From a virus (taxonomy: Duplodnaviria > Caudoviricetes), in IMG/VR virus record IMGVR_UViG_3300032253_000023, positions 1-35,401 of that record: 35,401 bases of DNA, one strand, 5' to 3'. The translations under genes were made by a program, and so were the position numbers. Below are positions 2,921-26,115 of the stretch, piece after piece. Position 1 is the first letter of the stretch. Every line of letters starts with the position of its first letter. Below the pieces are notes generated by a model, which was not told the DNA's origin, did no database searches, and worked only from the letters and a program-made list of their open reading frames with translations.

Positions 2921-3052
2921 TTACCCTGACCGTGACCGTGACCCTGACCGTGACCGTGACCGTGACCGTGACCCTGACCGTGACCCTGACCATGACCATG
3001 ACCATGACCGTGACCCTGACCGTGACCGTGTTTGACGTTTGCCGACTATCAT
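2921..3052 (-). CDS. 43-aa RS/GS/WS dipeptide-repeat microprotein [43 protein letters not shown]
   Basis: Translated by hand; ATG overlaps the upstream stop (ATGA); TAA falls exactly at the end of the repeat; below the ORF-track cutoff. Confidence 0.75.
2924..3028. repeat. Hexamer tandem repeat, about 17.5 units of NGGTCA on the minus strand (N = C, G or T)
   Basis: Directly visible TGACC[G/C/A] array. Confidence 0.95.
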
Positions 3053-3306
3053 TTTACTATACCGAATGACTCAACCGCTGCTGTCTGAATGTACAGGTTA
3101 TTTGGCAACTTTTCAGCATCCTTCCAGCTCTTTGACTCAAAACTTCCAGTTTCATAAACTACAGATGGGTCTTCAAGCAATACACACGTATCATTTACGC
3201 CGATTAATTTACCTGTGTATATGTAGTTCAAGCAAAAAAATGTCACTCTTTCGCCAATTAACTTATCAAGACCTTCGCCGTTAACTTCTTCAACTAATTT
3301 TTTCAT
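3049..3306 (-). CDS. Sm/Lsm/Hfq-like fold protein (85 aa, start MKKLVEE)
   Basis: LDKLIGERVTF-YIYTGKLIGVND-CVLLED-LYIQTAAVESF fits the Sm1/Sm2 strand pattern; GGAG RBS before ATG 3306. Confidence 0.65.
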   Translation of the reverse strand: MKKLVEEVNGEGLDKLIGERVTFFCLNYIYTGKLIGVNDTCVLLEDPSVVYETGSFESKSWKDAEKLPNNLYIQTAAVESFGIVK

Positions 3307-3344
3307 TCTTAACTCCGCTTGTGATTTATGTAACTTACACCATA

Positions 3345-3373
3345 ATAATAGCAATGTGATCTGTATTAGTCAA
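3345..3373 (-). promoter_or_regulatory. Sigma70-like promoter TTGACT-17-TATTAT upstream of the Sm-like gene
   Basis: Near-consensus hexamers with 17-bp spacer in intergenic DNA. Confidence 0.7.
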
Positions 3374-3409
3374 CCTAAGTACAATATATTTTATACTTAA
3401 GTTGAATTG

Positions 3410-4783: not shown

Positions 4784-4860
4784 ACTATATCAGCTAATCG
4801 CAAATTGTCAACGTAGGTATAATAATAATTGTAGACAAGTTGGATTTGGTGTGCTAAGCT
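4784..4860. promoter_or_regulatory. Divergent promoter pair: leftward TTGACA-16-TATAGT (4811-4784), rightward TAGACA-17-TAAGCT (4832-4860)
   Basis: Hexamers read at the point where gene orientation diverges. Confidence 0.6.
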
Positions 4861-4978: not shown

Positions 4979-5152
4979 ATGATTGAATTTTTAATTTGGT
5001 ACGCAGGATGGTACATAACCGGCGTATTCGTGATGGCTTATATCGATAAAGATTGCACGATAATGGCCGATGCATCAAGGGCGCATTTTCTACTACCGGC
5101 TGTGTTAATTCTAAGCTGGCCGTTTTGGCTGTATAAATATTGGAGAAATTAA
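4979..5152 (+). CDS. 57-aa predicted two-TM membrane protein (MIEFLIWYAGW...WPFWLYKYWRN), not in the ORF track
   Basis: Translated by hand; AAAGGA RBS; stop 1 nt before the next ATG. Confidence 0.7.
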   Translation: MIEFLIWYAGWYITGVFVMAYIDKDCTIMADASRAHFLLPAVLILSWPFWLYKYWRN

Positions 5153-5153
5153 A

Positions 5154-5351
5154 ATGTATGAAATTTTCATGTGGATATTATTAGTAGTTACTGTTTTCCA
5201 GCAAGTTATTATTCGTCGTAAAGACATAAAAATACACGTCTTTGAAATAATAAATAGACGGCTCAATGATGACCTTAACGACAAGCTTGATTACGATTTA
5301 CGTCAGCAGCTTAAATCCATTCCTAACTTTTGCGGAAAACAAAATGACTAA
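5154..5351 (+). CDS. Small protein with N-terminal TM helix
   Basis: GGAG RBS; hydrophobic N-terminus. Confidence 0.65.
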   Translation: MYEIFMWILLVVTVFQQVIIRRKDIKIHVFEIINRRLNDDLNDKLDYDLRQQLKSIPNFCGKQND

Positions 5352-5520
5352 ATTACAGGCAGCGAAAGAGGCGTATTATCGGGCAAGTGGTTATTTTTCC
5401 AAGACTAATTTTACTACTCGCGACGATCATGTTTACGCAAAAGAGCAGCGCGATAAAGCATTTGCTGAGTATCATAAACTGCTGGTGCTTTATTTGTATA
5501 GCAAAGGAATTGACGGATGA
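5344..5520 (+). CDS. Hypothetical protein (58 aa, start MTKLQAA)
   Basis: Start overlaps the upstream stop; ATGA coupling to the next gene. Confidence 0.6.
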   Translation: MTKLQAAKEAYYRASGYFSKTNFTTRDDHVYAKEQRDKAFAEYHKLLVLYLYSKGIDG

Positions 5521-5852
5521 GATATTTTATTATTGTCATGTTACTAGTAAGCGCAAACACTCAAGCTAAGGATTATTACTTGGAGTCTGCGATAGGATTA
5601 CATTTAATTGACTGGATGCAAACACGGCATATTGTTGTTAATGATAGCATCAAGGAATCAAACCCGATACTAGGAAAGAATCCAAACATGCAAGAAGTCA
5701 ACGGTTATATGGCTATCACAGGCGCGGCAATGCTGATAATACATAAGTCAATTCCTGTAAATTACCGAAAGACGTTTAGGATGTTTTGGGCTATGAATAA
5801 CGCCGCTTTCGTGTCTAACAATTTCATGATCGGTGTTAAATTTAAAATTTAA
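5517..5852 (+). CDS. Signal-peptide-bearing membrane/exported protein
   Basis: MRYFIIVMLLVSANTQA signal-like N-terminus with further hydrophobic segments. Confidence 0.7.
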   Translation: MRYFIIVMLLVSANTQAKDYYLESAIGLHLIDWMQTRHIVVNDSIKESNPILGKNPNMQEVNGYMAITGAAMLIIHKSIPVNYRKTFRMFWAMNNAAFVSNNFMIGVKFKI

Positions 5853-6060
5853 AATATTTGGAGTAAATTATGAGCGGCCACAAAAAGTACAACATAGTTT
5901 TGCCCAAAACTAAGGGCTACGAAATGCCCGAAGTTACTGAAGAAAAATTGGAACGTGGGCGGATTATACGGGCGACACTTGTACTATCACTTTGTTAGAT
6001 TGCCCTAAGTGTAACCATTCTATTATTGTTAATAGTTACTGAATAAACTAGGAGAATGTT

Positions 6061-6309
6061 GTGGAAGAAAATAAATGGATAGCTAGCGTGAAAGGCCAAT
6101 GCAACTCGGGAAGTTGGGAGATATCAGTTTTGCGAGCTGACAATGAGCATGGCCAAAGAAGTTACGGTTGGTTTGATGAAAACAAGCTGTTAATAAGTCA
6201 TAATGGTGGGCCGTGTCATTGGCCGATCTGCGGATTTGTTTTTGAACAGCAAGTTATTATCGCGAATGAAGTTGCAAGGCGATTAAATGCTGGTGAAAGC
6301 ATTGACTAA
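6061..6309 (+). CDS. Hypothetical protein
   Basis: 82-aa ORF, AGGAG RBS, GTG start. Confidence 0.7.
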   Translation: MEENKWIASVKGQCNSGSWEISVLRADNEHGQRSYGWFDENKLLISHNGGPCHWPICGFVFEQQVIIANEVARRLNAGESID

Positions 6310-6386
6310 TAATACATTTATTTCCGGATAGCCCATTAATTGGGGCTTTTGGGTGAGCCACGTGGCTAAATTTAAAATTAAATAAG

Positions 6387-6590
6387 GTGGATAAAATGCA
6401 AGACTGGAAATTACGAGTGAAAAATGAAAAGAGCGAACTTGATGATAATCTTGGCCGTCTATCTTTGTTTATCGACGGAGTTAAATTTGAGCATCTTCCT
6501 ATCGAATCAAAAAGACTTCTTAAGGAGCAGGAGGGTCATATGTCCGCGTACTCCGAAACACTCGGCAAGCGACTGTCTCTAGATGTATGA
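6387..6590 (+). CDS. Small helical phage protein resembling the crAss001_48-related family
   Basis: RVKNEKSELDDNLGRLSLFI...LLKEQEGHMSAYSETLGKRL pattern recalled from this family. Confidence 0.6.
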   Translation: MDKMQDWKLRVKNEKSELDDNLGRLSLFIDGVKFEHLPIESKRLLKEQEGHMSAYSETLGKRLSLDV

Positions 6591-23424: not shown

Positions 23425-26115
23425 TTAGTGCACAACTGGTGTAAATCGTCTGTATTGCATTTTATACGGGATGCTGTTTGCTGTTACCGGCCCCTGATTA
23501 TAACATTCAGCCGTGACACACAATCCAGCATTTGTATTGTCACAAGTTACGCCTACCATACCCTCAACGTCTAAAGTTATTTTGCCATCCGAATCTGTTG
23601 ATTCGTTTGAAGATGTATAAATTGGTGTACCGAGAATCGAAGTAATTGAATCATAGACTTTACACTCCCAGCCCGTCGTTGATGCAAACGGCCAGCCACG
23701 CCCTAGCATGTAAACATTGACAAATGGCTTTTTAACAATCGTCCCAATGTTTAAAGTGATCGCTTGCGAATCTTCACCGTCAGTTAGCGTAATTCCGAGA
23801 GAGCCGCACCCAGCCTCATTGGCATTGGCATTCGCTGGGGTATACAAGATATTTATATTGTCTTCACTTACTGCAAATGTTCCGCAGGTCAGACTATTTG
23901 TTGGAGTACCTGAGATTGAGATAACACCGGCCAACGTTGTTGTACTTGCAATCGCATACGTTGCTGGGTTTATCGTCGTAGGTGACGAGTATTGGTTTAA
24001 AATATTGTTAACCGTCGGTGACGTGTCGCCAACACTTAGCGTTCCAGGCGTCAAAGGCACTGCCGCAACAACTGAGATACCCATCAATTCTGGCTTATTG
24101 TCAAGTGATCCGGTCGTTCCTTTACTTAGAGTGATCGTTAAAAATCCATCATCAACAGCATCATCAATAACGATAGATGACTTAGTATAAATATTTGCAG
24201 TATTGCCAACCCCCGTTGGACAATTATTATATTCATTTTCTTCTGATATGTTTTCGACCGAAATATCAAAACGCCTGCCGCCACACTCTAAAACATTTAT
24301 CCAGTACTCTTCTGTAAAGTACAATTTCAAATCCCACGTACCATTCGCAATCGGGAGCTTTATAGTTATTGTCCCGTTGCACCCATACCATGCCTGATAT
24401 AATTCATCTTCTGATGTTCCTAAGATTGGTGTTGTCACTGTTCCGTCGTCGCTATATTCCGCGCATGTGTAAGTAAAATATGCAGCGTTATAAGCAATCC
24501 ACGTCGTAGAAACTGGAGTTATCTCGCCAGTTGTGCCAACGTTCATGTAAAACGGAGTTGTAATATCCGCGCCTGCTGCACCTGCCACGTTCTCAACAGC
24601 ACCAATATCAGGTGAAGTATCATCTCTATCAGTACATTCAAAATCCTCGTCAGCTTTTTCTAACCAATTTGCTGTATAAGAACAAGGGGTTTCAAAGTTA
24701 TTATAAAGCGGATAATTAATTGTAGTCATGTACGTTGGGGTTGTAATCATTGGATCGCCAGCGGCTAATGCAGCGCTGCCAGTTGCCAACCTGACATCTT
24801 CAAACGTTGGCATATTTAATGATGTATACAGTAAAAAGCTTGTTGCTGTTGATAGCGTTGGATCACCGTAAACATCCCCTGTCCCGTCGCAATCTGCGTC
24901 AGTTGGGTTTGCATACCATGAGTTGTGGTGCATTGTTATATTAACGGATGTTGGAGATATACATCCTGCAGCTCCGGTAGATGTTTCCCAGAAAATATTG
25001 TTAGCAATTTCCATCGTTGCGCCATATTGTGCGGCGGCATTACCAAGCTCTATCGTAGTATCATTGCCTACGCATGTGTTATAGACAAACTTATCAGCTA
25101 TGTATAACCCTAAATTTCTAGCTTCTAATTCTACGTTCGTGTAAAAACATCTGTCAGTATTAACACCTAGATTATTTCTAAAAATATTACCGATGTTACT
25201 TGTATTTGTAGCACGACCCTCGATTGACGAGCCAAACGCTTTTTTTGTTCTTGCGACTGTCCCGTCCCCGACACCGACAACAATGTTCCCTTCAATTACA
25301 TTTTCGCTAGAATCATCTATATAAACACCAAGATATCGCGGATTTTTAATAACATTACCACGTACAGTATTATTGTCTGAAGCGTTCCATAGTGCGATAC
25401 CCTCACACTCACAAGATGTCAAATCGTTATTTTCAATAAGGCCTTTAGTAGTGTTTGAATATGATATACCGCCAGGGTGTGATCCATACGGGCTAATCCC
25501 GTCAACAATTGCCCACGCCCCCTCTGTCATTGTGTTATTGCTTGTCTGTATCCTGGTTGATGTATTACCGGATAAAACCCAGCCACCAACGACGTGATCT
25601 ATTGTATTGCTATCAATAATAATATCGGTTTCACTGCCTGCTGAATCTACAACGATCCCATACCCGCTTGAATCTTTTATATGTAAATTCTCTACTGTAA
25701 TGTAACTACCTGATATTTTTATCAGTCCGGAATATATGCTCGACGGAACTGTGCCGATTGACAGAGTTGAAACATACCCGCCAGCGATTATGGGCTTAAG
25801 TCCAACTCCAACCCCAACCCCTATTACTTCACTTCCACTGTCCGTGTTATAAGCCCCATAAATCGAAGGATTAGCAGTGCTTACTCCATCATGATCAATC
25901 GTTAACTTTTCTAGAGCCCAGCTATCACCGGCTTTAAAATAAATATCGTCACCAGCGGCAAATGTAAACCCGTTGACTTTACCTATTGTCTCCCACGCAG
26001 TCGCATCCGTTAACCCGTCAGCGGCATTACTCCCGCCATTTTTAACGTAGTAAGTCGCAGCATTAGCGCCGAATGAAAATAGAGAGAGGGTGACTAGTAG
26101 TGTGATTAATCTCAT
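23425..26115 (-). CDS. Signal peptide + right-handed beta-helix + malectin-like domain protein (putative glycan-binding or depolymerase)
   Basis: MRLITLLVTLSLFSFGANA/ATYYV; parallel beta-helix repeats; DIGAVE; ELYQ...NGTWDLKLYFTEEYW...RRFDISVEN malectin pattern. Confidence 0.75.
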   Translation of the reverse strand: MRLITLLVTLSLFSFGANAATYYVKNGGSNAADGLTDATAWETIGKVNGFTFAAGDDIYFKAGDSWALEKLTIDHDGVSTANPSIYGAYNTDSGSEVIGVGVGVGLKPIIAGGYVSTLSIGTVPSSIYSGLIKISGSYITVENLHIKDSSGYGIVVDSAGSETDIIIDSNTIDHVVGGWVLSGNTSTRIQTSNNTMTEGAWAIVDGISPYGSHPGGISYSNTTKGLIENNDLTSCECEGIALWNASDNNTVRGNVIKNPRYLGVYIDDSSENVIEGNIVVGVGDGTVARTKKAFGSSIEGRATNTSNIGNIFRNNLGVNTDRCFYTNVELEARNLGLYIADKFVYNTCVGNDTTIELGNAAAQYGATMEIANNIFWETSTGAAGCISPTSVNITMHHNSWYANPTDADCDGTGDVYGDPTLSTATSFLLYTSLNMPTFEDVRLATGSAALAAGDPMITTPTYMTTINYPLYNNFETPCSYTANWLEKADEDFECTDRDDTSPDIGAVENVAGAAGADITTPFYMNVGTTGEITPVSTTWIAYNAAYFTYTCAEYSDDGTVTTPILGTSEDELYQAWYGCNGTITIKLPIANGTWDLKLYFTEEYWINVLECGGRRFDISVENISEENEYNNCPTGVGNTANIYTKSSIVIDDAVDDGFLTITLSKGTTGSLDNKPELMGISVVAAVPLTPGTLSVGDTSPTVNNILNQYSSPTTINPATYAIASTTTLAGVISISGTPTNSLTCGTFAVSEDNINILYTPANANANEAGCGSLGITLTDGEDSQAITLNIGTIVKKPFVNVYMLGRGWPFASTTGWECKVYDSITSILGTPIYTSSNESTDSDGKITLDVEGMVGVTCDNTNAGLCVTAECYNQGPVTANSIPYKMQYRRFTPVVH

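Follow-up and report, generated by a model that had tools for sequence, protein, structure and literature searches.

A widespread phage gene pair encoding a predicted Sm-fold protein and a dipeptide-repeat microprotein

Sequence comparisons and modelled structures point to a real and widespread two-gene system of phages, which combines a protein of predicted Sm fold with a dipeptide-repeat microprotein whose composition appears to be under selection. Analogues are known for its parts, namely the Sm fold and low-complexity tails; the two-gene system itself is absent from the literature searched, which included few subscription papers and excluded supplements, and a bioRxiv preprint (10.64898/2026.06.03.729735) proved irrelevant to the pair. 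The cassette is common yet mostly invisible to annotation. By estimate, about 480 and 390 stored viral stretches match two patterns of alternating X-Ser residues, and about 2700 match a pattern of alternating Gly-X residues found in related cassettes. GenBank record MW202825 (L569) lists neither gene; the Gly-X gene is missing from the annotation of phage phiPLPE (EU876853, L650) and is given as hypothetical in phage Koroua (L651).

Layout and recurrence of the cassette

The whole stretch of DNA analysed here, referred to as the window, is an entire virus record of 35,401 bases, linear and estimated to be 49% complete. Pfam and PHROGs searches identified genes for a GP7-type capsid, an SU10-type portal and adaptor, a terminase, an M15 peptidase, a PolB-related exonuclease and a Rad52/Erf annealing protein. 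The cassette is surrounded by small minus-strand genes, to most of which the searches assigned no function, and consists of the following features:

3345..3373, minus strand: sigma70-like promoter candidate, TTGACT-17-TATTAT with extended −10 TG (10/12 match)
3313..3318, minus strand: Shine-Dalgarno-like GGAG region ahead of the ATG at 3306 (read from sequence)
3049..3306, minus strand: 85-aa protein of predicted Sm fold ('family A'), net charge −4, with a long conserved L4 hairpin (IVYETG...WKDAQ) (homologues and predicted fold)
3029..3052, minus strand: microprotein start within the ATGA overlap, and its basic 8-aa leader MIVGKRQT (ORF and homologue comparison)
2921..3028, minus strand: (NGG-TCA) hexamer array plus stop codon, encoding 35 X-Ser residues (X = R, G, W) (tandem-repeat scan and ORF)

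The elements on which the original prediction was built, i.e. the promoter-like site, the 85-aa ORF and, overlapping it by ATGA, the 43-aa ORF with its leader and strict X-Ser alternation, are all present in the sequence. The 43-aa ORF (3052-2921, minus strand) overlaps the 85-aa ORF by ATGA and consists of MIVGKRQT followed by 35 residues. Its 18 X residues comprise 10 Arg (CGG), 5 Gly (GGG) and 3 Trp (TGG), every one of its 17 Ser residues is encoded by TCA, and the TAA codon follows immediately after the last unit. With 18 copies (2923-3030) and a score of 160, the hexamer array is clearly the strongest of 17 tandem-repeat rows in the window, and a scan for X-Ser and Gly-X patterns revealed it as the sole match in 146 tiles. 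The protein-database entry for the Sm gene (P0003, 101 aa) uses a longer TTG start which overlaps the −10 box; we prefer the 85-aa start because the homologues agree with it. The promoter candidate is located in a 103-nt intergenic gap (3307-3409). As sigma70-like sites are not enriched in the window (27 versus 21.5 ± 4.6 in shuffled sequences), a promoter at 3345-3373 is plausible and is deduced from its sequence.

Three further features of the window were observed. A second, stronger sigma70-like site (4784-4811, minus strand; 11/12 match, extended −10) heads the minus-strand gene block of the cassette, and the plus-strand genes at 4979-6590 form a short island of reversed GC skew which converges on the lysis genes. 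The 896-aa product of 23425-26115 (minus strand) matches beta-helix and malectin-like entries and is likely a tailspike or receptor-binding protein.

Searches starting from the Sm gene revealed an adjoining X-Ser ORF at 90 of 98 distinct family A genes, the window's own included (88 downstream, 2 upstream only), compared to arrays in 4 of 336 flanking windows used as control. Among the eight exceptions, four were truncated and four fell below the filter, and three of the latter show short or Leu-rich X-Ser ORFs by eye. In the opposite direction, an Sm gene was found upstream of 44/57 mixed arrays for which 450 nt or more of upstream DNA was available, versus 0/19 single-residue arrays. This near-obligate pairing supports the claim that both genes form one unit, and the X-Ser ORF that had been predicted to recur downstream with varied codons does so (88/98 loci, four Ser codons). 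By sequence criteria, the microprotein is thus a conserved gene. For 53 of 90 microproteins the start codon lies at the −4 overlap; lengths range from 19 to 110 aa, and the stop codon follows the repeat after a median of one residue; extensions of more than 40 aa past the repeat are almost never seen (1/124 and 0/122). We found no conserved third gene, the largest same-strand neighbour cluster covering 6 of 78 loci. The exact peptide sequence is absent from the protein collection, and no usable Atlas match was obtained for it. Homologues also occur in 13 MAG contigs assigned to several phyla, which are probably binned phage DNA.

Several other explanations for the repeat ORF were considered and rejected. 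A chance microsatellite is ruled out by the recurrence, the in-frame start and stop, and the flanking controls. The +1 frame is open in 82 of 87 arrays, but it has no leader and its product depends on which Ser codon is used (Gly-Leu, Gly-His/Gln, Gly-Arg or Gly-Ala across arrays); X-Ser is the only frame with a constant product across all Ser-codon types. An obligatory frameshift fusion of both proteins is unlikely, since the Sm gene and the microprotein start can also be separated by a gap (0 to +10 or more), in some cases with a separate GGAG, and since some peptide genes are located upstream of the Sm gene. A search for longer proteins returned two matches, neither a natural Sm-repeat fusion, which adds little weight.

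At some loci, several X-Ser genes sharing one leader are arranged on both sides of a single Sm gene (L028, L076, L079, L112; L126/L127, L141/L142, L173/L174). A third leader type (MIKKSIYKRN-like) was observed in the X-Ser ORFs of L152, L168, L170, L191 and L203, for which the upstream DNA fetched contained no Sm match; their Sm partner may lie further off or be more diverged.

Predicted fold and relatives of the Sm protein

One protein search returned 1014 relatives of the 85-aa protein and a second gave 426 clusters at 50% identity, almost all of them unnamed, and a family A relative was detected in 1 of 50,697 GenBank phage records. Neither this protein nor the peptide yielded a sequence match in Pfam, PHROGs or the PDB. 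The LSM and Hfq profiles were not matched by family A, as 6 of 134 homologues touched LSM14 with E values of at least 0.099 only.

An AlphaFold2 model based on 134 sequences (pLDDT 93.5, pTM 0.82) revealed a helix (residues 12–16) and beta strands at residues 20–25, 28–37, 41–52, 63–66, 71–74 and 80–82. The model shows the features that define the Sm superfamily fold, namely an N-terminal helix, a five-stranded bent beta sheet and a glycine in beta2. A Foldseek search of the PDB returned 23 matches with E ≤ 0.001, the best among the matches listed being spliceosomal, Sm and LSm chains (E = 3.9e-4). A VIA fold search ranked Lsm1-7 first (Z = 10.5, RMSD 2.5 over 67 residues), followed by SmF (10.3) and SmAP1 (10.2), with Hfq (Z = 7.0–7.6) below them. 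As Sm and LSm chains lead both searches, the Sm fold of the original prediction is upheld by the model.

Within family A, the beta2 glycine (G32) is conserved in 134/134 and the L3 asparagine (N38) in 127/134 sequences. Conservation peaks on the exposed long beta3-L4 hairpin and on beta5, and the beta4/beta5 region is also conserved (E79-S80-F81-G82). Loop L3 of Sm proteins carries a stacking aromatic residue or His at about the position where the window protein appears to have Thr; its L3 reads GVNDTCVL, with the conserved Asn but no aromatic residue. The window protein contains a single Arg and its net charge of −4 equals the family A median. Two tandem family A Sm domains occur in three relatives (P0140, P0144 and P0207) which, together with the conserved beta4/beta5 region, hint at an oligomer, which in Sm proteins is cyclic and closes through beta4-beta5 contacts. 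Such fused two-domain relatives would suit an even-numbered ring. The 43-aa peptide was modelled without secondary structure (pLDDT 57.7), and a complex prediction with three Sm copies and the peptide reached a score of 0.05 (mark 0.32), where only the peptide partner was scored, and carries no weight for or against binding.

A wider group of related proteins was recovered from the repeats. Loci found by their repeats uncovered a family B with the motif WIADTGRF, which aligns with family A in hhalign (96.5%) and is accompanied by an X-Ser ORF in 65 of 70 cases, with a different, neutral leader. The search for Gly-X patterns led to DUF6948 (PF22253), with 38 of 60 upstream proteins, picked from 80 of 120 loci, above its cut-off. 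Conversely, searches starting from DUF6948 revealed an acidic Gly-X ORF at 66 of 68 distinct genes, including those of the cultured phages phiPLPE and Koroua. None of the three families carried the other array type. The beta3-L4 segment carries a charge of −2/−1 in families with X-Ser arrays and of +2/+1 in those with Gly-X arrays. Family B aligns with DUF6948 over the N-terminal part (hhalign, 95.3%) compared to 3.4% for family A, the window protein remains below the 27-bit cut-off of the PF22253 Pfam profile, and a BFVD fold search related family A to DUF6948 with TM values of 0.59–0.64. Family A is thus linked to DUF6948 indirectly, via family B and the fold search. Loop L3 is not conserved across family B and DUF6948.

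In 22 of 58 DUF6948 loci the Gly-X ORF extends more than 40 aa past the repeat, and in six examples (L251, L262, L271, L281, L286 and L322) it runs on into a similar-looking further domain. Another unnamed family of small beta-proteins (alignment A4) precedes Gly-X ORFs at L258, L263, L265, L274, L287 and L320; it matches the DUF6948 profile with 92%, yet falls under the Pfam cut-off. That basic and acidic cassettes are obligatory partners was rejected, as family A records contained DUF6948 in 1/50 and family B in 1/50 cases (50 of about 100 family A loci, many records being incomplete). One record (G036) holds family A (L070) and DUF6948 (L637/L652) genes at opposite contig ends on the same strand; they would be neighbours if the genome were circular.

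Selection on the repeat and possible modes of action

In 96 arrays (one of them a spurious upstream match), the dominant Ser codon was TCG in 42, TCT in 33, TCA in 12 and AGC in 9, and a single Ser codon accounted for at least 90% in 81 of the 96. NGG codons encode X in 1889 of the 2136 units, while Leu, Lys and Glu units are tolerated though they break the GG. At the free position, G, T and exactly one Arg base (A or C) were present in 68/76 arrays of family A and 49/54 of family B. The Trp fraction of X amounts to 0.28 in both families with dispersions of 0.84 and 1.02, i.e. no excess over binomial, and like neighbouring units are slightly under-represented (0.91 in family A, 0.89 in family B); these array statistics count related loci as independent and are uncorrected for kinship. 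The constant mix of Arg, Gly and Trp points to selection acting on peptide composition rather than on the order of the units. The NGG bias can be explained by slippage, as NGG is the sole codon box in which first-base swaps give R, G and W without stop or Cys. Within 87 arrays, synonymous positions were no more variable (37 and 37 variant types) than Ser positions 1 and 2 (35 and 35), which fits homogenisation and gives no signal of purifying selection within arrays. Leader codons vary synonymously (23 leaders), and leader motifs, picked post hoc, are family-specific (56/85 versus 0/62 and 36/62 versus 0/85). A target of a diversity-generating retroelement was rejected, since four bases at the free position occur in only 3/76 and 3/54 arrays and the A of TCA is invariant across the window's 17 Ser codons. 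The array RNA folds no better than shuffled sequences (z = +1.69) and has no Rfam match.

We tentatively propose that an Sm oligomer serves as a scaffold and binds the separate low-complexity peptide as a detachable 'sticker' and that the basic form of the pair condenses nucleic acid, a reading which we consider quite possible, if somewhat short of probable. The Sm protein and the peptide would be co-translated from an early promoter through ATGA coupling, and the basic leader and repeat would attach to the conserved, acidic beta3-L4 face of the oligomer. Several peptides per oligomer would provide multivalent Arg/Trp contacts (cation-pi, stacking) through which nucleic acid may be condensed or coated in the early phase of infection, with the outcome that phage nucleic acid is shielded or host material is trapped. 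Slippage would reshuffle the order of the units, selection would keep their composition, and DUF6948 with its acidic Gly-Asp/Tyr peptides would represent the same design with a different, cationic client. Docking is suggested by the median peptide charge of +10 (n = 80; +12 with 3 Trp in the window) versus −4 for family A Sm proteins with their acidic beta3-L4 segment, a charge contrast drawn from two classes; the matching of leaders and charges to families may also come from co-inheritance. Since acidic Gly-X peptides cannot interact with nucleic acid in this way, a function common to both classes is an assumption. Phage-driven condensates have a precedent in Gp27 of SPO1 (PMC13401047).

A broader version of this proposal, which we regard as doubtful, would place all these cassettes in one phage superfamily of split machines, in which a family-specific leader would be recognised by an Sm ring that presents a composition-tuned dipeptide polymer. 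The cationic form would combine Ser with Arg/Trp/Gly and the anionic form Gly with Asp/Tyr/Ser, the charge of the ring being opposite in each case. The slippage-shuffled polymer would build condensates or cross-beta gels inside the host which shield nucleic acid or trap defence proteins, and the hexanucleotide arrays would encode natural functional dipeptide-repeat proteins. If the proposal of a detachable sticker holds, bacteria-infecting viruses would have a dedicated low-complexity system, DUF6948 and two unnamed Sm families would be assigned a function, and a natural library of compositions making a working sticker peptide would be at hand. The cassette is tractable, as it consists of two short genes and its DUF6948 form is present in cultured phages.

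Antimicrobial activity is known for Arg/Trp-rich peptides, and ribosome inhibition for Arg dipeptide repeats. The peptide could accordingly be a host-takeover toxin, either membrane-active or binding to ribosomes or nucleic acid, and the acidic Sm protein would restrain it or time its release. The charges of both window products (+12 with 3 Trp versus −4) and the ATGA coupling with the Sm gene first (53/90) agree with such an effector and antidote pair, but this idea extends poorly to the acidic Gly-Asp/Tyr class with its identical layout, Ser makes up half of the residues, no amphipathic helix is present and additional peptide copies are found in some genomes (L028, L076, L079, L112), so that we consider it unlikely. 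We give slightly less credit to an anti-defence decoy, in which a hypervariable peptide presented by the Sm oligomer would sequester a host defence sensor, kinase or protease while reshuffling tracks the hosts. An autonomous cassette within variable small-gene regions, fast changes of length and order (19–110 aa) and numerous Ser acceptor sites would suit this role; the constant composition across diverse phages is contrary to target-specific escape.

The original prediction favoured a classical Hfq/Sm-type RNA chaperone or an antagonist of host Hfq with an SR-like cofactor. Sm and LSm proteins are indeed the best structural matches and the beta2 Gly (134/134) and L3 Asn (127/134) are retained, but this function appears improbable for a protein with one Arg, a net charge of −4, no LSM or Hfq match in Pfam and a Thr in place of the L3 aromatic residue or His, in a loop that varies in family B and DUF6948. 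According to a published review, RNA-binding Sm pores are often cationic and the Sm fold is also found in non-RNA proteins such as MscS (PMC3710371); the fold by itself does therefore not imply RNA binding.

There is a small chance that the repeat acts in cis, either as RNA with one GG per 6 nt bound by the Sm ring in a TRAP-like manner or as a run of NGG and single Ser codons sensing tRNA damage, thereby controlling downstream genes. The strong codon bias (NGG in 1889/2136 units, one Ser codon in 81/96 arrays), synonymous sites which are no freer than others within arrays, and the GG at a 6-nt period common to both array classes are compatible with this. However, A and C are mutually exclusive and G and T nearly always present at the free base, which tracks amino acids; NGG is explained as the only box for swaps between R, G and W without stop or Cys, GG-breaking Leu, Lys and Glu units are tolerated, the RNA fold (z = +1.69) and Rfam searches gave no support, and the downstream genes are not conserved. 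Finally, a RiPP-like precursor, with a leader recognised by the Sm protein and a hypervariable Ser-rich core modified by an enzyme encoded elsewhere, is very improbable despite the conserved family-specific leaders, variable cores and multiple copies at some loci, given that no conserved enzyme, protease or transporter lies nearby (neighbour clusters of at most 6/78 loci) and that the Sm fold is not known to recognise leaders.

Comparison with known systems

The predicted fold of the window protein, a helix followed by a five-stranded bent beta sheet with the beta2 Gly, is shared with Sm and LSm proteins (Lsm1-7, SmF, SmAP1) and with Hfq, and its long L4 resembles that of Sm and SmAP proteins (VIA Z = 9–10.5, Foldseek E about 4e-4). 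It differs from them in being acidic with one Arg, in lacking a Pfam LSM or Hfq match, with 7–28% identity among the matches listed, and in its conservation on L4 and beta5. The RG tails of SmD1 and SmD3 are fused to the Sm protein, as is the C-terminal tail of Hfq, whereas the low-complexity part of the cassette is a separate gene. Other phage-borne Sm-fold proteins are similar in fold (VIA Z = 7.0) and in an Atlas feature score (0.80, a lead only), but have no sequence match to the window protein and are not known to have a repeat partner.

DUF6948 resembles family A in its predicted structure (BFVD TM 0.59–0.64), in its profile link via family B and in its coupled dipeptide-repeat ORF (66/68). 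In contrast, its partner repeats are acidic Gly-(Asp/Tyr/Ser/Asn), its L4 surface is basic and the window protein falls below the PF22253 cut-off.

The RS domains of SR splicing factors are basic and disordered and consist of Arg-Ser dipeptides, features which also characterise the microprotein. Arg, however, occupies only about 28% of its X positions, Trp and Gly are equally constant, and the 43-aa ORF contains no RRM or other domain, being a stand-alone phage peptide of 19–110 aa. The proposed likeness to SR proteins thus holds for composition only; it does not extend further, since Arg is no more constant than Trp or Gly and the related Sm families use acidic Gly-Asp/Tyr repeats. Serines of RS domains are phosphorylated by SRPK/CLK-type kinases; among the recurrent neighbours of the cassette, compared by clustering, no kinase was seen. 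By profile, the 85-aa protein belongs to none of LSM, Hfq and DUF6948, and the cassette, judged by its sequence, is not an SR protein.

A further parallel is offered by the Sm ribonucleoproteins of Borgs, in which Sm proteins of a mobile element are associated with disordered sequence made of rapidly evolving tandem repeats (Schoelmerich et al. 2023, PMC9879509). Of 19 such proteins, 5 carry the repeats as an N-terminal fusion; the units measure 4–17 aa, and the Sm1/Sm2 RNA motifs are retained (PMC9879509). In the phage system, by comparison, the repeat is a separate gene with a two-residue period which stands beside about 90% of the family members.
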